The translations under genes and the position numbers were made by a program. The notes beneath the pieces are model-generated. The model had not been told where the DNA came from and ran no database searches. It saw only the letters and a list, made by a program, of their open reading frames with translations. A stretch of DNA of 61,460 nt, the filler included. It is 13 parts of 13 records of this genome, joined end to end, with 100 filler letters (N's around TTAATTAATTAA, not from the genome) between each part and the next. Parts side by side here need not be neighbours in the genome. Positions count along the whole stretch, not along the records: positions 20,151 to 24,221 come from SRR15195285_5710; 12 more parts are not named here. One strand, given 5' to 3'. Position 1 is the stretch's first letter. Each line of letters opens with the position of its first letter. Below are positions 8,405 to 42,903 of this stretch, one piece after another.

Positions 8405-11400
8405 ATGGGGAAATCCAAGAAGAAGCAGAAGGCGGAGGAGGAGGCGGCCGCCGCGGCGGCGGCCGAGGCCGAGGCTGAGGCGGCGGCGAAAGCGGCGGCC
8501 GAGGCCGCGGAGATGGAGAGGATGAGGGCCGAGCAAGAGGTCGCCAGGCTGGAGCAAGAGCGCGTGGTCGCAGAGAACGAGCGGCTGATGCAGCAGGACC
8601 GACAGGAGAAAGAGGCGCTCGCGAGGAAGCTGCAGGCGGTCCACCGCGGCCGGGCGGCGCGCAGGGCGGCCAAGGTGGAGGCTGACGAGCGGCACGCGGA
8701 CTGCGAGGTCCGGCAGAAGGTCCATAAGAAGTCGACGGAGATGGGCGGGAACGACGGTCTCGACCTGTTTGATGCGAAAAAGAGGGACAAAGACTACAGT
8801 TCGGCGGATGACAACGTGGTCGCCGACCGCTCGTTGTACTGCCTAGGCGAAGAGAGTGGCATTCGGCACACGTTCAACGAGATCCTGGATCACAAGGTGA
8901 CCTCGGCCTGCCTCATGTGCTGCATCTTGCTCAATGTCGTCATCCTCGCAATCGAAACTCCTACGAACACGTTCGACGACGACACGCGGGCCACGTTGGC
9001 CGTTCTCGACCTCCTCCTATCCATCATTTTCTCAGGTAAGCATGATGCTGCCATGCCGACGCCCGCCTGTGCCCAGCGCTGACCCGCGCCGCTGCTGGCT
9101 TCCGTAGTTGAGATGGTGATGCGCATCGTCGCGCTTGGCTTGGTCATGCACCCAACTGCGTATCTCCGCACAAGCTGGAACGTGATGGACTTTGTGGTGG
9201 TCACTAGCATCTGGATTGGATGGGCCACGCAGACGGCAGGTGGTCACGAAGCGGAGGAGGGCAACATTAGCTACTTGCGGACGGCCAGGGCCTTGCGGCC
9301 TCTGCGCGCGATGCGGATGTTCGGGAGCATCAAGAAGATCATGTCGTCGATGTACCAGGCCAAGGCAATGATTCTAAACGTGACAGTTCTCATCCTCTTC
9401 TTTTTCGTGGCCTTCGCTGCCTTCGGGCTGTCGCTCTACCACGGCGCGACAACGCGCTCGTGTCTCGATGCGAACACCACTGTCTCGATCGCGAACAGCC
9501 TGCCGGACACGATCAACCTCACGCTCGGAGAAGACTACGTAAATTGCCCCACTACCTTGCAGTGCGATGGCACCGAGCCTGGGCTGTGTGAGGTAGTGCA
9601 ATACGAATATACGGGCGACTTGCCAGATGAGATTCACGACTGGGGGTATGACAACTCGCGCAATGCGCTCATGACCATCTTCATTGCGACAACGCTGGAT
9701 GAATGGCCACAGCTGGCTGACCCAATTCGCGAAGCGCCACTGATGGCACGCTGGACCGTGTGGGGTTTCTATGCTTTGGTTGTGCTAGTGTGCGGCATGC
9801 TCGGCACCAACCTTTTCGTCGCGGTCATCACCTTCGCGTTTGCAAATGTAGCCGAGACCGAAGATGGCACGAGCGCGTTTGCGAAGGGGCAGCAATACAA
9901 TACAACCGTGGAAGATGAGACGGAGGAGAGCACAGCTAACCCCACGTTTGACTTAGAGGATGGCCAGGATTCTACGAACGCCATGTTTGACTCGGAAGCA
10001 TCAGCCCCCAAGAAATCGAAGCCCGGCGTGCCTGCGTTCCGAACGATCGTGGAACACAGCTACTTCGAGGGGTTCATCCTTACAATCGTGGTGCTCAACA
10101 CTGCTGCACTCGCGAGCGAGCACTACGATCCAGAGCATCATGACAGTGGTGGTATGTCACAGGAATTCACGGACAACCTGCACATGGTGGAGACGGTTTT
10201 CAACGTGATTTACGTCATCGAACTGATCATGAAGCAGATTGGGTTGGGGCCGAAGGAGTACTTCAGCAGCGGGTTCAACATACTTGATTTTACGCTCGTA
10301 GCCACGACATTGCTGAGTTATGCGGTGAAGGACCTGAAAGGATTCGGCGCTGGCCGCATGTTCCGTATCCTGCGTCTGTTTCGGGCAGCCCGTCTGGTCA
10401 GGTTGATGAGAAAATACTACGCAGTCCGCAAACTGCTGAGCACAGTGACCAAGTCGTGGGAAGCATTGCTGAATGTGATGTTTTTCATCGCTGTCTGGCT
10501 CGTTATCTTCGCTGTGATGGGGATTCATCTCTATGGGCATGAAAACGAGGTATTTGCAGCGGATGGCATTCCCCGCGACAACTTCCAGAACTTTCCACGC
10601 TCACTGCTGACTTGCTACATTGTCCTCACCGGCGAAGACTGGAGTCCGTTGATGTACGGCTTTATCCGGGCGTATGGGTGGAACGCTGCCATCTACTTCG
10701 TGTTCATGTTCCTCATGACTAACTTTGTGCTGGCAAACCTGTTCGTCGCCGTTATTCTGGAGAATTTCAGCACAGATGAGGACATGAAGCTTGAGATTCA
10801 AAAGCGCAAGTACGAGGCGGACCAAAAGCGCAGGATGAAAATCGGTGCTCCGCTCACATTTGAAGAACAGCCTGATGATACCCCGTTCATCCAAGACCTG
10901 CTTTGCCCTCAGCAAGACTTGCACTACTGTCCAGACCACTGCTTTCTCAGACAGTGGTGTTCGACGGTCGTTGAGGACGAACGTTTTGACAAGTTCATCA
11001 TTGCGATAATTCTCTTGTCAAGTCTGTGCCTCGGCATCGAAGGTCCACCAGACGCCGAGTACTTGCGGGACTATGAGAACGTGCGGACTGCATTAGAAAT
11101 TTTGGATGTGTCCTTCTTCTTCATCTTCTGGTTTGAGTGTCTGTGCAAAATTATCGCGCACGGCTTCCTGTTAACTCGTGGAGCCTACTTAACCGACGGT
11201 TGGAATCAACTGGATTTCAGCATCGTCGTGCTTACCACCGTTGACTTCATCTTGCGGTATTGCGAGAGTTGTACAGGCGATTACACATGGGTCAAGGTGT
11301 TCCGTGTCGCCCGGGTGATGCGCCCGCTGCGTGTTGCAACGAAATTCGAAAACATCAAGGTCATCGTGGATGCACTCCTTTCGGCAATGACGGGCGTGTT

Positions 11401-13423
11401 ATCTGTCCTGGCATTGGCAGCATTTTTGTTCCTGGTGTTCGCCGTTCTCGGGCTGAACATGTTTGCGGGAAAGTTCTGGATGTGCCAGGAGGAAGGGTTT
11501 GAGATGTTCAACAGAACGGAGTGTATGGATGCTGGGTATGAATGGGCCAACCCTGATCAGCACTTTGACAATATCTGGCATTCCCTTGAAGCCTTGTTTG
11601 TCACTGCGACTCTAGAGGGCTGGGTGGAAATCATGAACCGGGGAATGGATGTGCCAGACGAAGTGGGCATGGCGCCTGTTGAAGGCATGTATCCTTCGCA
11701 CTCGCTCTTTTTCGTGATTTTCACGATTCTTGCCAGCTTTTTCATTACAAACTTGTTCATCGGTGTGCTGGTGAATAATTTCCAGGAGAGCACTGGAAGC
11801 GCTGTGATGACAGATGAGCAGCAGAAGTGGGCTCGATTCCAGATGCTGCTTGCCATGGCTTCACTGGAAGAGTCGGAGCAAGAGAAGGCCGCGGAAATGG
11901 AACGGGCCAAGCCGTTCCAACGTACCCTCTTGCCAATTGTCAATGACCACAAGTTTGAGGTCGGCATTGCTGCCATGATCGGCCTCAACGTAACTATCCT
12001 GCTGTTCGAGCACTTCCCACAGTCCCAGGCAGCCACAGACTTCATCGAAGCGGCCAATCTCATTTTCTTGATTCTATTCACACTCGAGATGTTTCTGCAG
12101 ATAGCCGCCCGGGGCCCGGTCGCATACTTCAGCAGCAATTGGTTTAAGATTGACTTCGTCATCATCTCTTTTTCGTGGGTCCTGACATTCTCCAATGTGC
12201 AAGCTGGACAGAATGCCGCGCGAGCTGTCCGAATGCTTCGCGTGCTACTCATCCTGAAGTTTGCCAAGATGGCCCGAGCTATGGTCATGACAGTCATCTT
12301 GTCTGTTGGACCGACCCTTAACGTCATTGCGGTGCTGGTGCTAGTCCTGTACATCTACGCTGTTGCCGGCATGCAATTTTACGGCAATCTGGAAGACTGT
12401 GACAAGATCAACGACTTGGAAAACTTTAGAAACATCTTCAATGCAATGATGTTCCTGTTCCAGATTTCTACGGGACAGGACTTCAAGAGCATCATGTTTG
12501 ATATCCGGGCGCAGAATGGCTTTGCAACGGCTGCGTTCTTCATTTCGTTCTACATTTTGGCCATCTTCGTCTTCACCAACCTGTTCGTAGCCGTGTTGCT
12601 GGAGGCGTTCGAGCGCGAGTTCGACGACTCAGTGCCGCTTGACATGACCGCCGACGACTTGATTGACTTCAAGAACCATTGGGATGGCAAGTGCGAAGAT
12701 TTGCTCAGGAAAGAGCTCGTGCTGCCCAAACGCGGTCGCTGTGGAATCAGGACCACATGTATGGCTGTTCCCGTTCGGCATCTACGGGAGTTCATCCAGG
12801 ATTTGCCAGAGGACTCCGTGGTTGGCCATGCGAGGGACCTAGGAAATTCGACAGTCTGGTGGAATCGCTTGCTGTACGAGCTTTCAACGAACGAGAAGTG
12901 TTCAATTTATCAGGTCGAGCCGCATTTTGTGCACGAGGCAGAGCAGGGGCAGGCGAGCGACCGCGTGCTGGATGAACTGATTGAGTTCGACGAAGTGGTT
13001 CGGGCCTGCAACCTGATGCGCAGTGCGGCCTACGCGGACGAGGATGAACTCCATCTCGACCAGCTTAGTTACGGCGAGCGTGTGAAGATGCAAGAGCAGC
13101 TAGACGCCAAGAGGGAGCATTGCGCGATGCAAATGCTGGAGTCGGCCGTGGGAGCATGGCGCATGCTTCGGTACCCTCCAGCGGAGGTTGCGGATAGGAT
13201 TGCAGCTGACCCGACGGGCAACGAGGAGAAGGTCTGGCACATGCAGGTAAGCTGCCGAGGTTTCCGCTGCCTGCATACCACCACGTTCCCCACTACATCG
13301 CACTACCACGGGACTCACTGGCTGTTGTCTTGACTGTGGCTGTGTTTGCGCCGACCCCTGCAGGTGGTAATGGGGCGGACGTTGATGATGGCAACAATCA
13401 TACAGCGACACAAGATCGGCTAG
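8405..13423 (+). CDS. Four-domain voltage-gated cation channel alpha subunit (Nav/Cav-like); introns 9036-9107 and 13247-13363
   Basis: Four 6-TM repeats with S4 Arg arrays (RTARALRPLRAMR; RMFRILRLFRAARLVR; KVFRVARVMRPLR; RAVRMLR). Pore motifs TLDEW, TGEDW, TLEGW, TGQDF. S6 NLFVAV motifs. Both GT-AG introns restore the frame. Confidence 0.93.
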
Positions 13424-17918: not shown

Positions 17919-20050
17919 TCATTGGGGCAAGGCCTGTCGCGCTGCGTCGCCAATGGCATTTCCATGTGCGGGCTCACCTGTCGAATTTGCGCTATCAGCT
18001 GTCTTGGAATCTGATGCACGAGGAGCACTCTGGCCGAGCGATACAAGCGACCTGACCCATAACACACTGCGGAACTTGAGGAAGATGGCTAAGATAAATT
18101 GCCAAAATTTGGCCCAGATGCCACTGGCAACCACTCGAGTGGTTGCCAGTGACGGTGACACTGGTGACTGTAACAGATGGAGGCTGTCTTGGGATGGCGA
18201 TGGCAGCTGTGGCACTGGGCTGCCCTGAGGAAGCACTTGGACCTGTTGCAGTGGGAGTATTCGCTGCTCTGCCTCAGTCTTCGTCTCCGTCTCCGGCTGT
18301 GGGTCCGGCGCTGGCGCTGGTGGTGGTGTAGCCTTAGTCTCCACCATTTGTATGCCCTGCAACGCTGCGACAACTGCAGGAAATCGAAGACGTTCCTGCG
18401 GCTTCGCCTTCCAGCACTGCTCCATCAACGCAACCCAGCTTGGTGGGCAGTTCGCTTGGCGCTGGCTCTGCAGCGCCGCAGGAAGCCTCGGGCGCTTGTT
18501 ATTCACAGCCACCCACTGCGGTATCAATGCTCGTGCCACGTGGGGCCGTTCGTCCGGTCGACCGACGGCCTCCAAGATTCCGCGCACTACCGGAGTCCTA
18601 GCTTCGACTTCCCACATCATAATGGCAAACGCATACACATCAGCTGCGATTCCAACGCCGGTACCTAAGTACATCTCAGGTGCCTGCATACAATTTCAGA
18701 TTTTAGCAACAGGCACAACCACATAAGATGTGCAGGCTGCGATGGTTTCAACGCACCATGTAGTCAATTGTTCCCTGTGGTACTCCTCCATCATCACTAC
18801 CAGGCTGGCTGCCAGTACTGCGCCGGCTTGCAATCGAGAGCCCAAAATCAGCTACCTTGCACCGGTCGCCGCTGATAAGGATGTTTGCTGGCTTCAGATC
18901 AAGATGAACGATGGGTGCCTTCGAAGGCAAGTCAGCGTGAAGGTAAACCATCGCTTGAGCAACTTGCACCATCATGTGGATTTTCCATCGCCAGCGTAGA
19001 GGGCGAGAGTTGATATGAAGCCAGTCATGCAGAGATCCATTGCGCATGAACTCGGTGACCAGCATCCACTGCTTGCCACCTGCACTGCTGTTGTCACCAG
19101 CCCCAGCAGGGCAGAATGATCCTTGAGTCACGCCTAGGAGCTGGATGACGTTTGGATGATGGAGAGCTTTGAGGTGTTCCATCTCACGGAGGAACTCTGT
19201 TGCCGCTGCCGAGCCTAGAGATACCTCATCCGTGCTCGTAAGGGCCTTGACTGCCACCTCAGTACTACCGAGGAACTTCATCTTCATGACCACGCCAAAC
19301 CCACCTTCGCCTAGTCGCCGCTCAAGCCGTAGGTCGGACCATGGGATCAGCATGCTCTGAAGTTTCTGTGTTGTAATTTCGTCTTCAGTACATGCTCGGG
19401 ATGAGTGACCATGGTCATCAGCCACTGGCCGCAGCTCCTGCTCCATCTCAAACTCCTGTGGTGCTAAACATTTTCGATCTCTGCCCATTACCTTCCGCAG
19501 TGTCGGTCCAAGCTTAGCGACTGTACGAGTTTCCGTACCACGGACTTCGTGTGTTGGTGCGTACTTCCACGCATTGACAGTAGCCACTTGGTTGCTCCGG
19601 CATTGTGGGCATTTGTATTTGTGAACCTCTCCACATTGGTCGTCGACCACACAAGAAGCACCGCATTGCTTACAATCCACCACCAGCTGAAACTTTAGAC
19701 CAAATCTTGCGGCAATGGCATCGGTCTCGCCTGGCATGCCTTCAAGGCAGGACATTACCCGCCGAGCAACGCAGGCAGGTTCGTCGCCAGTTTCAACACG
19801 CACCACGATCCGCAGACACTGCTCGCAGGTGCGGTGAACATAGTAGTCCTCATCACCGAAGAAAAATGCTCGGTCTCGATATAAGTGGCGACATGCCCGC
19901 ACATCCGCCGCAGCGCCGAGAGTGCGAAGTAGCGATACTTGCAACGAGAAAAAGACAGCCTCTGGCAAAAACGATGGCGGCTGATCTTCCCAGTATGCAT
20001 CGTGGTGGACTGAGCGCACAGTGGCCACGCACAGGTTGAACACCTCGACG
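17919..20050 (-). CDS. 5'-truncated TKL kinase with upstream COR-like remnant and Cys cluster (possible Roco-type); intron 18684-18756; 3' end uncertain
   Basis: LGEGGFGVV, VAVK, HLDLKPANIL, KVADFG, GTIDYM|APEMY joined across a GT-AG intron, DVYAFAIMMWE. Upstream FLPEAVFFSLQVSL and CxxC...CxxC. Confidence 0.8.
20021..20050 (-). repeat. Right arm of the 30-bp terminal inverted repeat
   Basis: GTGGCCACGCACAGGTTGAACACCTCGACG is the reverse complement of 15080-15109. Confidence 0.95.
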
Positions 20051-20150: not shown

Positions 20151-20387
20151 GCACCGGTGAAAATTACTCGGGATCGTTGTACACCACCCCTGCGCTTGCA
20201 TTGGGACTACACGGTCGGCGAAAACGATGTGCCACTAAACGATGTGCCACGGGTGTGGCACTAGTGGTGGCACTAGTTGAGGCAGCACCACGGTCGCCGC
20301 TGCAGGGGAGGCGCTGGGAGCCGCTGTAGCGCAAAGCTCTGCTCGCTTAGCGATTGGTATTGGATACTTGATTTGTTTGCATTGTGG

Positions 20388-21812
20388 CTACTTCGCCGAC
20401 GACGACGGCCAGTCGCCACTACGTAACCTCTCGAGCATCTCCACGGACTGCCTAACGCCCCCAAACGGGAAAACGTGCACGATCACCTCCCCCTCCGGGA
20501 CACAAGCTTGCTCGCAGTACGCTCCCAGCGCGAGAACTAGCTCCTCTGGGTACACCTCCTTCTCGTCAGCGCCAGCAGCTTGAGGCTGCTGCGAACCACG
20601 CTTGGACAGCGACTGAGGACCATCTGCAACAAATGCCGACGGACCACTGATGCTGCGCGCTGTTTTCGAATCATCTCCGTCCTCCCCAGTGGTCGTGGAC
20701 ATATCTGCACCGATCTCAGCGAGGAGCTGCGCCAGCTCCGGTCGCTGCAGCAGCTTGTCAGTGCCAGAGTGCTTCGCGTACAGCTGCGAGAGCTCCTTCT
20801 CACCTACCGACAGCACCGCCGCTGCTGCAAGCAGCTCCGCCTGATCTACCTGCCCGTCGCCGTCTACATCTAGGATATCAAACGCCGACCCGAGGAACAA
20901 GCTCGGAACCTCACAGATTTCGGCGATGCGACGCAGCTTGCTTGGTTTTGTCGGACCTGGCACCCCGATGTAGTAGCGAGGTGGTATGGGCTCAGGAGCA
21001 CCTTCGCCCACTGCGGTGGCGATGGCATCGTGCACTGCCGCCCGCGTATGCGCCAGCCATCGGACTAGGATTTGCGCGTCAAAGCAAAACTGACTCGCAA
21101 CAGCAACACTGTGGCCCGCAGTAGTAGCAGCATGAACTTTAGTTGAGAGCAGCTGCATCGTCTTCTTCGAGCCTTTTCCAAGACCTGGATGACCCTCCGG
21201 GTGGCCAGCGAGAACGATGGTGTCAAAGCCGTGGCGGAGTAGCGCCCCAGTAGCCAACAGGTCGCTGGCAGAGGCGAAGGCGGAACCGCCCAGCTTCCGG
21301 TCGTGCTGGTCGTTGCCACCAAGCAAGAGGAGCTCAGTGGCGGGACGAGCGTATCCTGGCGAACTGTCATCGGCACAGCCAGTACAGTGCCTAGCCAGAG
21401 CCGTCAGTGTGGCCTCGAGCTGCTCCTCGTTGTCGAATCGGCTCGCTGGTAGATGCGGCACAGGCACCATTCCACGACCCCGCAGCTCGGCAGCTGCGGC
21501 ACCAACGTCGTCGAAGTGGCCAATGTTTTTCTTGACCATGTTTACGAACACCTTTGTGCCAGTCTGCAGCGGCGACGTAGTACAGTTTTCCGCGGCGGCG
21601 TCCAGAGCACCGACCAGCGTGTATTTGAGCTTGGGTGAGTGCGCTTGGGCGGGGCTGAGTTCGATGCTGGCTGTCCTGCCGAGGCCACGCAGGCGAGCGG
21701 CCATCTGCATGTCTATCGGCACAGTGGGCGTCAGCGGTGCTGCAGCTGCTGAGTGTCCAGCTTCGCCCGCCAGCAGCGTTCCGCCTGCGTCGTGACTTGC
21801 GCCACACCCCAT
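20388..21812 (-). CDS. metF: Bacterial-type methylenetetrahydrofolate reductase (MetF-like) with EF-hand insertion and N-terminal MGCGAS
   Basis: SIELSP, PVPHLPA, LLLGG, LAGHPEGHP, SQFCFDA, IGVPGP, VHVFPFGG are motifs of the short bacterial MetF-like family. Internal DVDGDGQVDQAEL EF loop. Confidence 0.8.
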   Translation of the reverse strand: MGCGASHDAGGTLLAGEAGHSAAAAPLTPTVPIDMQMAARLRGLGRTASIELSPAQAHSPKLKYTLVGALDAAAENCTTSPLQTGTKVFVNMVKKNIGHFDDVGAAAAELRGRGMVPVPHLPASRFDNEEQLEATLTALARHCTGCADDSSPGYARPATELLLLGGNDQHDRKLGGSAFASASDLLATGALLRHGFDTIVLAGHPEGHPGLGKGSKKTMQLLSTKVHAATTAGHSVAVASQFCFDAQILVRWLAHTRAAVHDAIATAVGEGAPEPIPPRYYIGVPGPTKPSKLRRIAEICEVPSLFLGSAFDILDVDGDGQVDQAELLAAAAVLSVGEKELSQLYAKHSGTDKLLQRPELAQLLAEIGADMSTTTGEDGDDSKTARSISGPSAFVADGPQSLSKRGSQQPQAAGADEKEVYPEELVLALGAYCEQACVPEGEVIVHVFPFGGVRQSVEMLERLRSGDWPSSSAK

Positions 21813-22308
21813 CCTCCCAAGCGCCGCTACGGTGGCATCGAACCGGCCCACACGCGCGCCACGTCGAAGGGTATATACAAGTAGATAGGTGCGCCAGCGG
21901 CCAGCGAGGGGCGAGGGCCGGCCAGCGTAGCGGCCCGCGCGCTCGGGACACACGCGCGCTCGCGGTCGCCGCGCGCGGCGCGCGCTTGACCAACGCGTAA
22001 CGCTTATAACGCGCGGCTGATGACGACCGATCATCCACGAACGTTCAACCTGGGCACAGCAGTAGACACTTTCCGGGTGTTGTGCTGATTGAAAACTCGT
22101 GCGGATTGTGGTCCAGTAGGGTTGCAGGTACGTATACATACAGTATATATACAGTATGAAAAAGTCAAACTCACAAACAAAACAAATACGACTTACAATA
22201 TAGAATCTTACATGTCGCCACCTATTTTGTGGACAGGTTATGTAGCGGAAACCGGTTCCACGCACGGCAAACGTGGCCCCGTTACCCCTATCTATTAACA
22301 GCTAGGAC

Positions 22309-23848
22309 ATGGCAGACTACTACGGTGCATCGCAGCTCTACCTGAACGCACTCCATGACTTTGAGGAGCAGGGGTATTGCGTGGTGAAGGGGCTGCTCGA
22401 TCCGGCTGCCCTGGGGCCCGTCCGAGAGCTTGTCTGTACGTTCACCGGCGACGTGCACATTTCTCCTGCCTCTTGCCGCCGCATTTGCCCGGGCTTATCC
22501 TTTGCGCGGTGTACCTCCTCGGGATTCGTGGTTGCTGCCGAAACCACGCTGAATCTTCGGAGCAGCTCGTTACGTTGACGCCCGCGCCGAGCGCCTTCAT
22601 GCCGACGGCCACATCACGGCGCTGTGCGAGGACGCGCCGTTCGAGAGCCGCTGGGCAAGGCTCCGTGCTCAGGTGGAGGACAGCGGGCCGACAGGACCCA
22701 TCGGGTCCACGTCTGATTGGGGAGTCCCATCTGCAATGGGCGAGTTGCTGCTTGCGGAACCTGTACATGCCCTCTATCGACAAGCAGAGCTCACAAGGCT
22801 TGCGTCTATGTTGCTGAAGACGGGCGATGTGTACAGCTGCGGCAACTACTGGTTCCGCCCGATGACGTGTGATGACTCGCAAGGTCACTACCCACTGCAT
22901 CAAGATTCTTACTTCTATGGGGGAGAGGTATCTATGCCAGAGCGCTGCGATATCCTATCCGTTTGGTGCGCACAACAGTTCCATCCGCGTCAGCGCATCG
23001 CTCCCATCAGCTGAAGTCGTGCATGCCTCACGACTTCGTTGCTCGTGGCGTCCTGTTTTGGCCAGGATTCCTCTGGTACCAGTGGACGAAACTACAGGGG
23101 TAAGCGTGGACTCGTTTTCCACCGCACGCTGTCCTTCTTGTTGAGTGGGTTGTCGTAGTGAGTTTCACTCACGGACGGTGCGTGTTGAAAACGGTGCGTG
23201 TTCCATGCTACGGCTGCCGGTGCGTCAACTGCAGGCGCTCCTGCTCGTCCCAGGCAGTCATCGGCTTGGCAAGCTGCCAATGGAATTTGGCAACTGGCAA
23301 AGTGGCGACTGGGTGCAGCCAATGGACGAGATTACCCGGAAGTATGGAGTTGCAGTTGCTTCAGAGCCGATGCAAGTTGGCGACGTGCTGTGAGTGCCGG
23401 TTGCGAGGTATTGTTTTGTGTCAGCCTTCTGTAGCAGTTCAGTCTCAATCTCTTTCTCCGCGGAGCGGTCGGGTGTCGAGTGGTGCGGTGGATATAACCG
23501 TTTGCCTGTGGTACTCGCAGGTTTTTCCACAACCTGGCGCTACACGGTTCTGGAGAGCACTTGCGCTCGGATTTTGTTAGATGGGCACTAGACTTGCGCT
23601 ACGAACGAGCCCCTGATCCGACTCGATACTCACAAGGCGACCAGTATTATCAGCAGTACCCGAGCTTTTTGTGCCACGTTGGGGACGCTGATAACACTGG
23701 TGGTGAAACGGCCGCGGAGACGCGTCGTGAACTTGAAAGCTGGCAGGAATGGCTGCACATGTGGTCAGCAGCAGGAGCAGTGGTGGCGAAGGACGAGCAG
23801 CAAGAGGGCGACTTGAAAAATACCGCTAAGCACAAGCCACGGCTGTAG
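22309..23848 (+). CDS. Phytanoyl-CoA dioxygenase (PhyH) family Fe/2OG dioxygenase; introns 22436-22565, 22966-23065, 23100-23234, 23390-23520
   Basis: FEEQGYCVVKGLL, LHQDSYF, SVWIPLVPVD, LVPGSH, GDVLFFHNLALHGS, RWALDLRY assembled across canonical introns. Ends ...KPRL. Confidence 0.88.
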
Positions 23849-23921
23849 CATGGTAATCTAGCCACTATGAATTCTAGCATTCTCGGCAGCGTCCGGGCAG
23901 TCACCGTTTATTGGAAACGAA

Positions 23922-24221
23922 CTACACGTCAATCCCGTCCGGCTCGGGAGCCGGGCTCTCCGAATTCCCGCTATCCTCAGTCTTGCTATCTGTGCCGTGC
24001 TTGTCTCTGGCCTTACTCGGCGGAGCCCGTCCACTTCGCTTTGCTCGGCTTGAGCGAAGATCTTGTACTTTGTCGTTGACCTGAGCCTGCTCTTCAGTAG
24101 GTACATCTGCCTTAGTGGCCTGTTCTCCCGTCGGTTTGACTTCCTTTGCCGCTCCCCGCTGGGCGTCTGGCTCAGACTCTGGCTCAGGCTCAGGCCCAGG
24201 CTCAGGCTCAGGCTCTGGCTC
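23922..24221 (-). CDS. C-terminal low-complexity fragment (EPEPEP...) of a truncated protein
   Basis: Open frame from the contig end: EPEPEPEPGPEPEPESEPD...PEPDGIDV*. Confidence 0.5.
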   Translation of the reverse strand, partial: EPEPEPEPGPEPEPESEPDAQRGAAKEVKPTGEQATKADVPTEEQAQVNDKVQDLRSSRAKRSGRAPPSKARDKHGTDSKTEDSGNSESPAPEPDGIDV

Positions 24222-40190: not shown

Positions 40191-42611
40191 TCATGTCCTG
40201 AGCTCGTAGTACTTGTTCGTCTTTGGGTCATAGTAGCACGAAAGTATTGGATCATAGAGCAAGTCAATTTCTTCGGCGCCACCACCACCACCGCTGCCAT
40301 CTTTAACACGCTGCCCGAGTTGCTCACCACCCGGCTCACTGCCGCCGACACTGGCGTCAGCCCCGAGAGCAACGGATGTAGAAGCAGCGACCGTACGCAG
40401 GTTGGACGGTGGGACGAGTGGAGGTGTGAAGCTTCGCTCTAGACCTGCCAACCGTGCCTCGAACGCAGCCTGACCGCTGTAACCCTCGGGGCTCAAACCA
40501 GTTCCGTCACCGACAGACAGCTTCTGCGGAGTGGCGTGCTGTGTGTCTGCATCGCTCCCGGCAACGCCCTGGCCATGGATCATCCCAGGTGCTCCTTCTC
40601 CGCTTTCAGGTCCGACATGACCTCCGGAAGCACTCAACCCAACGCTCGAGCTTGAGTGGCGATGGTCACCACCATACGATTCAGATTGCGACTGAGATCC
40701 TTCTAGGCGGACGTAGTCATCATCGTCTGCGAATCCTATGGAAGTATTCTTCGGCGATCCACCAGTATAAAATCCATGAGATCCCTCCGTTCCAAAGCCT
40801 GGTGCAGAGTCGTCACCGTGACGGTTGAGATCATTGTCTGCCTCGTCGCTGTAACGGTTGCGGTCGTACTGTCCCCTTTCATAGTGGTGGCCACTCCTGC
40901 CGCCTCGGCCTCTGTCACCACCGCCCTCGTTCTCTTCGAACTCTCCCCCAGTTCCCACACTGTCAGCGTACTCAACTAGCTCTTCTGCGACAGAGCCCGC
41001 ATGCGATGGCACTGGAGACGCGGCGCCTGCCTCAGACTTTAGCGCCCCCAGCGTTTGTTGCCCAGCATGAGAACCGACCGCAGGGCCACCGAACCGAGCC
41101 ATATACGACTCCTCCAACCGAGCCAAATGAGCGCGCTTTCTTTCAATCTCCTGTTGCCGCAGCTCTGCTGACTGCCGCACTGCACCGCGCTGCCGATCTT
41201 TGGACCACCGTGGCTCCGGCTCCGGCTCGGGTATTGGGCGCTCTGAGCGAGGGCTTCCATCCCAGCCACCTCCAAGTGGGCTACGAAACTCCATTTCTTC
41301 CGCTAGCTGGTGGTTAGTAGCCAGAGATCCACCCTTCGCGACCGCAGCCTCAATCTCTGCCATCTGCGCATCCTTCTGTGCAAGCACGCCCATCACGTCC
41401 TCTACCGCCCCGCGAGACGCCGCCTCCTGCCGCCGCTCATCGGCCCGGGCGTCAAGGCCACTCAGAGGTTTGCGTTGCTGTCGTGCCTCGCGGATCGGGC
41501 TTCGACGTTTAGCCGAGGTCCGCCCGGAGCGGTTCGGGCTGCGATCTTTGGTAGACGCACGGCCGGAACGCTGTGAATTGTCAGGCCCCAGGCCACTGTC
41601 TACGCGTGAAGAGCTGCGTTTCGAGCCAGCAGTGCCACCCCGAGACGCGCCTTTGTGTCCGCCAGCGCTGTTGCTTGGGGTCTGTAGGCGCGAGTGAGAC
41701 GTGCCTGGCGTCCTGACACGCGATCCAGCTGTTTGCGCTCGGGAGCCAGCCGTTCCTGGGGGCCTGGATGCACCAGCCTGCTCGATTCGCCGCCCGAACG
41801 CGACCTGAGCGCTGGACGCAGCGGATAAGGCACCTTCGCGTGCCGCGGGAAATTTGGCTTGCGAGGGCGACACGGTATCGCCCAAGCGCTCCATTGCCTC
41901 AGCGGTCTGACTCCCAGGCGGCGTGTATGTCTCTCCGCGAGCTGCGGCCTCCCATGCGTAGAGTTTGTGCATATGAAAAATCTGGTTGACATATTGCACC
42001 CCGGGAAGGAAATGCCAGCTCTTCGGCGCCTCTTCGACGGGTGTGGCCTGCCAGATTGTGCGGTCACAGCCGAGCTTCACGTCATCCTCTGTGGTGTCCA
42101 CCAAGGCGCCACGTAGTGTGGCGATCCGCCGCAGCTTGCACGCCGCGCCCACGCTTATGAGCTCCACTGATTGAAATTCAGTGCCTGGCCACAGCCGCGC
42201 CGTCATGTCTCGCACATCGAAGCACAGGTTGAGCCAGATACCGCGCTGGATCGGCCCCATCGGGACGCGAGCGTGGAGCGCAGTAGCGACAGTCTCCTTG
42301 TTGCCAGAGTTACACACTATGCGACGTCGCTTGCGAGTCGTGTCGATCAGCGCGATCTCCACGGCAATCCCCTTACTCGGCGGGATCTTGACCTGAAGTG
42401 CCAAGAACCCCTGCGTCAAAGCCAGGGCCCCGCGCTCATCCTTTGGCACCTGGATCTTCGACATCCCATCCAAATCGAAGATGAACGATTTGACCTCCTT
42501 GTCATAGAGCTTCTTCGGCTTGCCGCTAACCTTCCAGTCCTTCAGCGGCGCACTGCCCTGCGCGGTGAAGACCTCCACCGACGCCCCCCCATGGAACGCG
42601 CCCGCAAACAT
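40191..42611 (-). CDS. CFAP20DC: CFAP20 domain-containing protein (C3orf67/CFAP20DC)
   Basis: N-terminal DUF667 (MFAGAFHGGASVEVFTAQG...WLNLCFD...CKLRRI) and the characteristic C-terminus DLLYDPILSCYYDPKTNKYYEL. Confidence 0.9.
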   Translation of the reverse strand: MFAGAFHGGASVEVFTAQGSAPLKDWKVSGKPKKLYDKEVKSFIFDLDGMSKIQVPKDERGALALTQGFLALQVKIPPSKGIAVEIALIDTTRKRRRIVCNSGNKETVATALHARVPMGPIQRGIWLNLCFDVRDMTARLWPGTEFQSVELISVGAACKLRRIATLRGALVDTTEDDVKLGCDRTIWQATPVEEAPKSWHFLPGVQYVNQIFHMHKLYAWEAAARGETYTPPGSQTAEAMERLGDTVSPSQAKFPAAREGALSAASSAQVAFGRRIEQAGASRPPGTAGSRAQTAGSRVRTPGTSHSRLQTPSNSAGGHKGASRGGTAGSKRSSSRVDSGLGPDNSQRSGRASTKDRSPNRSGRTSAKRRSPIREARQQRKPLSGLDARADERRQEAASRGAVEDVMGVLAQKDAQMAEIEAAVAKGGSLATNHQLAEEMEFRSPLGGGWDGSPRSERPIPEPEPEPRWSKDRQRGAVRQSAELRQQEIERKRAHLARLEESYMARFGGPAVGSHAGQQTLGALKSEAGAASPVPSHAGSVAEELVEYADSVGTGGEFEENEGGGDRGRGGRSGHHYERGQYDRNRYSDEADNDLNRHGDDSAPGFGTEGSHGFYTGGSPKNTSIGFADDDDYVRLEGSQSQSESYGGDHRHSSSSVGLSASGGHVGPESGEGAPGMIHGQGVAGSDADTQHATPQKLSVGDGTGLSPEGYSGQAAFEARLAGLERSFTPPLVPPSNLRTVAASTSVALGADASVGGSEPGGEQLGQRVKDGSGGGGGAEEIDLLYDPILSCYYDPKTNKYYELRT

Positions 42612-42903
42612 CCCGTGCCCACGCCAGCCCGAGAGCCCCGACGTCAGCTGCTCACGACTCCCCTCCCTGAGCGGATCCCGGGGCACGCACCGCTGCTGTT
42701 TTGCGAGCCAAGCAAGCCCCGGTGGCGCGCACAGCCAGCCACTCTTCCGCACGCCAAGCAAGCAGCTCCAGTGGCGCTGGCGGGGCTCACAGTGAGCTGT
42801 TGACCATCCAAGGCAGCAGCGCCATCACCGTCATCGCCATCATATATGCTGAATATCGAGATCTCTCCTCGCTATTCACAGGCTGGCTCAGGATTCAATC
42901 CAC

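Follow-up and report, generated by a model that had tools for sequence, protein, structure and literature searches.

In this work, we analyzed a stretch of DNA of 61,460 nucleotides (the window), made of 13 parts of 13 records joined end to end, whose parts need not be neighbours in the genome. The gene under study lies in the part derived from SRR15195285_5710 (positions 20,151 to 24,221). According to the open reading frame (ORF) list and its translation, it is a single uninterrupted ORF on the minus strand (20388..21812) of 474 codons plus stop, and the encoded protein begins with MGCGAS. Our results showed that the core of this protein is a triosephosphate isomerase (TIM) barrel of the methylenetetrahydrofolate reductase (MTHFR) superfamily (PF02219 fold) without the S-adenosylmethionine (SAM) regulatory domain. 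Comparison of sequences and models assigns its lineage to the bacterial "type 4" MTHFRs, represented by S6MTHFR, and not to generic MetF. Our best reading, in which we have about even confidence, is that the protein would be a eukaryotic type-4 descendant working as a Ca2+-gated, membrane-tethered methyl-tetrahydrofolate (methyl-THF):acceptor oxidoreductase.

The fold was recognized with both sequence and structure searches. In a phmmer search of the PDB, residues 82–263 and the last strand (440–460) matched 7xg9_A, a 288-residue MTHFR, with an expectation value (E) of 6.6e-10. A profile made from 22 family members matched the same entry at E 2.3e-48, the next MTHFR (Thermus) being found at 2.3e-8. 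The AlphaFold2 model (alignment A1) has a mean predicted local distance difference test score (pLDDT) of 81.5 and a predicted template modeling score (pTM) of 0.83; only residues 1–29, 373–382, and 388–414 are disordered in it (pLDDT below 50). With this model, the top Foldseek matches were 7xlf and 7xg9 (E about 1e-13), with target-normalised template modeling (TM) scores of 0.80–0.82, compared to about 0.5–0.56 for the MTHFRs of E. coli, Thermus, Haemophilus, and Neisseria and 0.28–0.35 for the two-domain fungal and human enzymes. There were 69 PDB matches at E<=0.001, and all among the matches listed were MTHFRs. The chain stops 22 residues past the last strand and thus lacks the SAM-regulatory domain. 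An earlier note on this DNA, made from the letters alone and giving no strand, had described an intronless short MetF-like barrel without that domain. The single ORF, the PDB and Foldseek matches and the position of the C-terminus all agree with this description, and the structure prediction that the note proposed as a check returned an MTHFR-type barrel carrying an EF-hand pair. Its generic MetF label does not hold, the profile and TM values given above pointing to type 4 instead. In the NCBIfam scan we obtained a mere trace of a match, and the protein atlas search gave no usable match.

The structure 7xg9 is that of S6MTHFR from Sphingobium lignivorans SYK-6, a flavin adenine dinucleotide (FAD) enzyme that oxidizes 5-methyl-THF to methylene-THF (PMC11868366). 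According to this paper, S6MTHFR barely reacts with NADH, menadione was used as acceptor in vitro and the natural acceptor is unknown. Its catalytic residues are Glu21, Asp107, and Gln175, and type 4 is defined there by Leu48-Pro49, held by Arg78, by Phe215/Cys219 and by the loop P268-F269-G270-G271-L272. The helix bearing Phe215 and Cys219 shifts onto the substrate. The same text ties the PFGG loop and the Cys of this gating helix to the exclusion of NADH and the oxidation of methyl-THF, and reports that the L48G-P49G double substitution raised NADH oxidation about 38-fold (PMC11868366). Type-4 relatives are mentioned in Methylorubrum CM4 and Rhizorhabdus Ndbn-20; the type is described there solely from bacteria, the 18 Eukaryota rows of Supplementary Data 4 being of type 1 (16/18) or type 2 (2/18), with none of type 4 (0/18) (PMC11868366).

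To compare the active sites, we mapped these positions in a 171-row alignment that includes E. coli MetF (from L001); the mapping agrees with the HMMER alignments. Site counts refer to the 56 rows with an Asn at the column of the catalytic Asp followed by an Asp, which we call eukaryote-type. Most of the catalytic residues are retained. Glu51 (E. coli E28, S6 Glu21) is kept in 47 of 49 filled rows, while His120 (E. coli H88), Lys225 (E. coli K172), and Gln241 (E. coli Q183, S6 Gln175) are each kept in 54 of 55. Several type-4 elements are also kept: Arg125, which corresponds to S6 Arg78, is found in 55/55 rows and Cys300, the equivalent of S6 Cys219, in 49 of 50 filled rows. P449-F450-G451-G452-V453 aligns with the S6 PFGGL loop (P in 49/50 and F in 43/50 filled rows; at the fifth position Leu in 23 rows and Val in 15). 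Three sites differ. Val93-Lys94 stands for Leu48-Pro49, with Val in 50 of 53 filled rows, so that position 48 is still bulky. Ile296 takes the place of S6 Phe215 (E. coli F223) and is Ile in 44 of 49 filled rows, bacterial-type rows having Tyr or Phe. Finally, Asn167 occupies the position of E. coli D120 and S6 Asp107 in all 56 class-defining rows, followed in 56/56 by Asp168 (GGND); the other 114 rows have Asp (86), Gly (10), Ser (4), a gap (9), or another residue (5) in this column. This Asp-to-Asn-Asp change was absent from the earlier note. The conservation of these residues suggests an active site under selection in which one catalytic position has been rebuilt, and Asp168, right after Asn167, could take over the role of the catalytic Asp.

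These data also bear on whether the protein could be an ordinary biosynthetic MTHFR, reducing methylene-THF with NAD(P)H for methionine synthase, to which Ca2+ control and a tether were added. The fold and most of the catalytic residues are common to all MTHFRs, and the NADH-excluding Pro49 is a Lys here, at one of the two positions whose joint replacement by Gly in S6MTHFR raised NADH oxidation (PMC11868366). However, the PFGG loop and the gating-helix Cys are kept, position 48 carries a bulky Val and not the Gly of types 1 and 2, and the similarity to type 4 is far above that to type 1 or 2. We therefore consider an ordinary reductase unlikely.

The second feature of the protein is an insert between the motifs CEV and GPS. 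The stretch from Cys300 to Pro449 counts 148 residues, compared to 41–57 (median 50) in 103 bacterial-type rows, a net gain of about 98; local alignment shows that in bacteria and in short EF-less eukaryote-type forms (P0222 and P0283), C-G-V is directly followed by G-P-S. A segment alignment delimits an 87-residue block (residues 303–389) exactly between the two motifs. Within it, the family profile matches the N-lobe of calmodulin (residues 13–83, E 2e-8), and residues 305–371 are modeled as two successive helix-loop-helix units with pLDDT 83–90. The first loop, DVDGDGQVDQAE, fits the canonical EF-hand rule (acidic or polar ligands at positions 1, 3, 5, and 12, Gly at 6, and a hydrophobic residue at 8) and is flanked by helices at 310–314 and 324–329. 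Such a loop arose by chance in 517 of 200,000 shuffles of the protein. The second loop, HSGTDKLLQRPE, is non-canonical at positions 1, 3, and 6, the family consensus being non-canonical at 1 and 3 but having Gly at 6; EF-hand 2 thus probably serves as a structural partner and not for binding Ca2+. The earlier note had placed an insert of about 100 residues before the last strand, with a canonical loop at about 20831–20886 and a second, degenerate helix pair, all of which we recovered.

For the family census, the eukaryote-type class comprised 59 rows that have either Asn-Asp at 167/168 or a segment 60 or more residues long; it includes fragments and probably two stray bacterial rows. A strict EF loop was found in 35 of these 59 rows, whereas none of the 103 bacterial-type rows has one. 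The block is absent from P0163, P0164, P0166, P0182, P0188, P0222, and P0283 and decayed in P0013, P0167, P0172, P0176, and P0177. Relative to the three closest orthologues, identity amounts to 96/94/90% in the EF pair, 87/86/76% in the barrel, 71/65/50% in the linker that follows the EF pair and 56/56/41% in the N-terminal tail. Judged from these sequences, the insert is more constrained than the enzyme core among close orthologues. The whole-chain pTM of 0.83 suggests that the modeled EF lobe is fixed in position on the barrel. As for an unspliced intron, which the earlier note had named as a possible pitfall, we rejected it: the insert is in frame, is the best-conserved segment and is present in P0160, a TRINITY transcript model with the EF loop. 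We also observed that the GPS motif (residues 390–392, 20637–20645) is conserved in at least 90% of sequences, as SGPSxFV in the family, despite predicted disorder. It aligns with the bacterial GPS right behind the Cys helix (CGV-GPS), the insert having displaced it by about 87 residues.

An alternative explanation would be that the barrel is dead or strongly slowed and has been kept at the membrane as a Ca2+- and folate/flavin-binding sensor or scaffold. The Asn found at the catalytic Asp position throughout the class-defining rows is consistent with this, as are the higher conservation of the EF pair among close orthologues and the near-invariant GPS, which lies in a linker of predicted disorder and resembles a docking or modification site. 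On the other hand, Glu51, Gln241, His120, Lys225, Cys300, and the PFGG loop are near-invariant across a deeply diverged clade, and the invariant Asp168 could replace the role lost with Asn167. Moreover, EF-less members share the GND core, which indicates that the Asp-to-Asn change would predate the sensor and not be tied to it. A non-catalytic sensor thus appears improbable to us.

The third feature is the N-terminus. Gly2, Cys3, and a small residue or Ser at position 6 specify myristoylation and palmitoylation, and MGCGAS is therefore a candidate for this double modification. Thirteen proteins, including the studied one, start exactly with MGC; 7 more have MGC behind mutually unrelated extensions and five further proteins start with MG followed by A, G, or S. 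The MGCGAS start of the earlier note is thus present in the ORF, and MG(C) is conserved across the family. An MG start was counted in 15 of 22 EF-bearing tree rows and in 1 of 9 EF-less ones, some of the zeros being possibly truncated transcripts. On these counts, the putative anchor and the sensor tend to travel together, the association being soft. We also observed that P0015, P0016, and P0025–P0028 have no MGC start but an N-terminal extension of about 60–90 residues with an EF-loop-like stretch; extra sequence resembling a Ca2+ module would replace the lipid anchor in these proteins.

The frame upstream of the MGC codon is open to 22265, and translation could start at the in-frame ATG at 22034 or 22139, the latter being the start of a 583-residue public model. 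This would give an Arg-rich organelle-targeting extension and a soluble organellar enzyme instead of a lipid-anchored one, and short EF-less relatives such as P0222 indeed have presequence-like N-termini. However, the upstream region is not conserved: over some 48 codons upstream of MGC, strain P0002 carries a 4-codon indel plus several substitutions, although it differs at just 2 of the 474 codons of the gene itself. The extensions of P0005, P0014, P0022, and P0159 are unrelated in sequence and each ends at the same Met-Gly-Cys, a start found exactly in the 13 proteins mentioned above. In addition, the upstream ATGs are preceded by T at −3, compared to A at −3 and G at +4 around the MGC codon, and an out-of-frame upstream ORF of 3 codons at 21838 also speaks against an upstream start. 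Since the upstream sequence is unconserved, the ATG context is the best one and MGC is shared across relatives, MGC is very probably the true start codon, and an organellar enzyme starting upstream is quite unlikely. The start proposed in the earlier note is thus favoured by comparison and context, with upstream ATGs and one public model standing on the other side. In the same region, the studied gene and a plus-strand ORF starting at 22309 are divergent and share about 500 bases between them (21813–22308), and a TATA-like run near 22145–22160 adjoins the in-frame ATG at 22139.

To place the protein in its family, we carried out several searches. A word-indexed search returned 33 relatives, in which precomputed domains gave EF-hand Pfam in 12, PF02219 in 9 and both in 4; none of these 33 lists a UniRef source. 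An exhaustive profile search gave 3701 matches at E<=1e-3, of which 413 reached E<=1e-30. About 40 proteins at the head of the list have this architecture, either full-length or as fragments, and are followed by short proteins of 285–320 residues. The coding sequence is collinear with full-length relatives, and the public gene model P0036 is identical from MGC onward (474/474). One relative, 84% identical, is a EukProt protein labeled Picozoa sp. COSAG02, a label from a single-cell co-assembly that we treat with caution. Judged from these sequences, the family comprises dozens of eukaryote-type relatives, most with an EF loop and an MG(C) start, and is found in many uncultured protists.

We then built a quick IQ-TREE phylogeny from 84 rows and 296 core columns. 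The rows were 31 near-full-length ones of the eukaryote type, 52 short ones (P0033, P0034, and alternate short rows of 270–380 residues among P0184–P0296) and E. coli MetF; fragments, P0229 and P0258 were left out. The eukaryote-type rows together with P0222 form one clade (Shimodaira-Hasegawa approximate likelihood ratio test, SH-aLRT, 99; stem 1.13). P0222 had been classed as bacterial by length, but its core is of the GND type and its N-terminus resembles a presequence. With E. coli MetF as the root, the clade nests inside the short rows with node support of 81–89; this nesting is tentative because the outgroup branch is very long (4.67). The nearest short relatives are from Pseudomonadota (78 of 80 loci kept from 522 confirmed relatives), in keeping with the earlier note, which had called the core typical of proteobacteria. 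Since the eukaryote-type clade sits among these rows, a bacterial origin of the eukaryotic family is the best reading, perhaps by way of a single ancient transfer, an endosymbiont, or passage between protists. Horizontal acquisition, as the earlier note had put it, thus retains the support of a single clade among bacterial-type rows, its direction and timing hanging on one long branch. The idea of a single refitted gene gives way to a widespread family.

In the tree set, 22 of the 31 eukaryote-type rows have the EF loop and none of the 52 labeled bacterial does; its distribution needs at least 7 changes on the tree. Since the members share the position of the block and its sequence is homologous, a single gain followed by several losses would account for this. 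Short EF-less P0222, P0283, P0163, and P0164 have the GND core and Arg/Ala/Leu-rich, organelle-presequence-like N-termini, and may be organellar paralogues in the pre-insert state. In P0169 (908 residues), an EF-bearing member follows about 400 residues of Thr/Ala/Pro-rich low-complexity sequence. Besides, the MetF-like gene of the Pseudomonadota relatives is preceded, immediately upstream and on its own strand, by a very conserved ORF of about 455–513 residues (57–85% identical across loci), which holds this position in 71 of 80 bacterial loci (L002–L081; e.g., L003:3456–4997 and L053:3335–4918). No relative of this ORF turned up in Pfam, NCBIfam, or the PDB; some sources label it "SAM-dependent methyltransferase". 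From its position and conservation, this ORF looks like an obligatory partner of this bacterial MetF-like subgroup. No copy of it was found in the window, and no eukaryote-labeled match among the 120 matches listed.

Taken together, we propose the following mechanism. The enzyme would most likely use FAD to convert 5-methyl-THF into 5,10-methylene-THF, a direction suggested by the type-4 lineage and by the retained PFGG loop, Cys, and bulky position 48. Electrons would probably not go to NAD(P)+ but to another acceptor, which may be a membrane quinone; a quinone is suggested only because of the menadione assay of the bacterial enzyme and the predicted anchor. With Met-Gly-Cys myristoylated and palmitoylated, the barrel would be held on the cytosolic face of a membrane. 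The inserted block starts two residues past Cys300, at the end of the helix that moves onto the folate in the solved bacterial enzyme, so movement of the first EF helix should reach this folate-closing helix. Ca2+ bound to EF-hand 1 may thus reposition the gating helix, and the folate site would open or close.

Several observations weigh against this reading. Two type-4 motif residues are altered, Pro49 being lost to Lys94 and Phe215 changed to Ile296, and the catalytic Asp is an Asn in the eukaryote-type class. In the E. coli enzyme, the D120N substitution is reported to make the folate half-reaction slower by about two orders of magnitude, and the chemistry may therefore be altered or slow here. 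Neither domain reaches its Pfam cut-off in this protein alone: the MTHFR model scores 15.8 bits for a cut-off of 24, and the best EF-hand score on residues 307–331 is 20.9 bits for a cut-off of 25 (EF-hand models score about 20 versus 25–30). Regarding the anchor, the public model P0036 (583 residues) starts at ATG 22139, initiation at an in-frame ATG farther upstream could yield an N-terminus that is longer, rich in Arg, and not acylated, and many rows counted as lacking an MG start are possibly truncated transcripts. A single, very long outgroup branch sets the root on which the direction and timing of the transfer depend. Lastly, genomic coupling with a THF-dependent demethylase counts as a type-4 trait, whereas no adjacent demethylase gene was seen here, and none of the 18 long window ORFs scanned against Pfam encodes a THF-dependent demethylase or another folate protein. 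This absence concerns window ORFs only, and clustering is not expected for eukaryotic genes.

Compared to known systems, the protein is closest to S6MTHFR, with which it shares a single-domain TIM barrel, the PFGG loop, the gating-helix Cys, the Arg at R125 and the catalytic Glu and Gln. It differs in its eukaryotic host, the 87-residue EF-hand block after the gating helix, the MGC N-terminus, the three substitutions (Asp107 to Asn-Asp, Leu48-Pro49 to Val-Lys, and Phe215 to Ile) and a disordered linker that replaces the helix region following GPS. With E. coli MetF (type 2) and human and yeast MTHFR (type 1), it has the superfamily fold and the equivalents of Glu28, Gln183, His88, and Lys172 in common, but the match is much weaker, the SAM-binding regulatory domain of type 1 is absent, and the loop behind the last strand is PFGG instead of the T-L-N-R of E. 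coli. Plant and fungal mitochondrial external type II NAD(P)H dehydrogenases (e.g., NDB1) are membrane-associated flavoenzymes whose Ca2+ dependence comes from an EF-hand inserted in the catalytic domain. The working principle we propose would be the same, probably with quinone reduction, as an analogy and not as membership: these enzymes have a Rossmann fold and an unrelated substrate, whereas the studied protein is a TIM barrel. We know of no lipid anchor of this kind on them. Trypanosomatid calflagins (FCaBP) are dually acylated flagellar Ca2+-binding proteins with a Met-Gly-Cys type motif and EF-hands; the resemblance lies in the N-terminal motif and the EF-hands, calflagins being small and having no enzyme domain.

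Table 1. Coordinates of the studied gene and of the features of its product along the window
Feature	Position	Strand	Basis
Complete intronless coding sequence, 474 residues + stop (stop 20388–20390)	20388..21812	−	ORF list, translation
MGCGAS, candidate N-myristoylation (Gly2) and S-palmitoylation (Cys3) motif	21795..21812	−	Family comparison, ATG context
Disordered N-terminal tail, residues 1–29	21726..21812	−	pLDDT below 50; 41–56% identity to close orthologues
Upstream region, probably 5′ untranslated region or promoter	21813..22265	−	Open frame; in-frame ATGs 22139, 22034; 3-codon out-of-frame upstream ORF 21838
MTHFR-type TIM barrel, strands 1–7 and substrate-gating helix (residues 33–302)	20907..21716	−	PDB sequence/profile matches to 7xg9, Foldseek, site mapping
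Glu51 (barrel site)	21660–21662	−	
GGND, residues 165–168 (barrel site)	21309–21320	−	
Gln241 (barrel site)	21090–21092	−	
Helix residues 290–300 (barrel site)	20913–20945	−	
Inserted block, residues 303–389 (87 residues), between CEV and GPS	20646..20906	−	Segment alignment, length census
Calmodulin-lobe-like EF-hand pair, residues 305–371	20700..20900	−	Profile, model, conservation
Canonical EF-hand 1 loop DVDGDGQVDQAE, residues 315–326	20835..20870	−	Pfam sub-cut-off, loop rule, shuffles
Degenerate EF-hand 2 loop HSGTDKLLQRPE, residues 348–359	20736..20771	−	Helices both sides in model
Variable, mostly disordered linker, residues 372–419	20556..20699	−	pLDDT below 50 for 373–382, 388–414
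Barrel return: helix 423–435, last strand 443–448, final helix	20391..20555	−	Second match to 7xg9 residues 259–281
P449-F450-G451-G452 loop	20457–20468	−	PFGG conserved

The window is gene-dense and eukaryotic, with long ORFs on both strands and no tRNA or Rfam match in the corresponding scans. Besides the studied gene, it encodes a PRP16-type splicing helicase, too conserved for placing the host, a CFA20-domain protein, a four-domain voltage-gated cation channel, several protein kinases, and transporters. The channel (9113–13333, plus strand) is intronless and was matched four times by Ion_trans; the CFA20-domain protein (40191–42761, minus strand) has 856 residues. Based on these two genes, the host is a flagellate with Ca2+/voltage signaling parts. 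A minus-strand protein kinase is split into two ORFs (17919–18689 and 18748–20043) that lie 58 bases apart, one covering kinase profile positions 1–152 and the other 172–257. Both probably belong to a single gene interrupted by a short intron; the host genome would thus have introns though the studied gene has none. The studied gene is resident in the genome of this host, and a contaminant or a recent transfer was rejected, since the gene lies within a 61-kilobase window of eukaryotic genes, with a local G+C of 0.59 in the window range of 0.51–0.61.

The earlier note knew of no described example, and we found no published protein combining MTHFR and EF-hand among the papers listed on both, judged by title or abstract start; among the papers found, only PMC11868366 deals with "type 4 MTHFR" or "S6MTHFR". 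What appears to be new, from comparison of sequences, is a branch of type-4 MTHFRs in eukaryotes that carries an inserted Ca2+ sensor, a predicted lipid anchor, and a rebuilt catalytic Asp position. As both domains fall below the Pfam cut-offs, routine annotation would give "hypothetical protein". A bolder version, that the protein would be a Ca2+-triggered, membrane-bound 5-methyl-THF:quinone oxidoreductase, and with it the first type-4 MTHFR from eukaryotes and the first folate enzyme gated by Ca2+, looks doubtful to us.

The MTHFR step is usually regarded as committing one-carbon units to methylation in one direction. A bacterial family running it backwards was defined only in 2025 and was reported from bacteria only (PMC11868366). 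If our reading is true, this family would extend to eukaryotes, folate redox chemistry would be linked for the first time to Ca2+ signaling, and the membrane location would be a concrete hint on the missing electron acceptor. In the bolder version, one-carbon units would flow backwards out of the 5-methyl-THF pool. Conceivable uses would then be a way out of the methyl-folate trap when cobalamin-dependent methionine synthase is stalled, or the transfer of methyl groups from methylated osmolytes to the folate pool and of their electrons to the membrane quinone pool. In this version, the lipid anchor would also point to a membrane quinone as the natural acceptor of the whole type-4 family.

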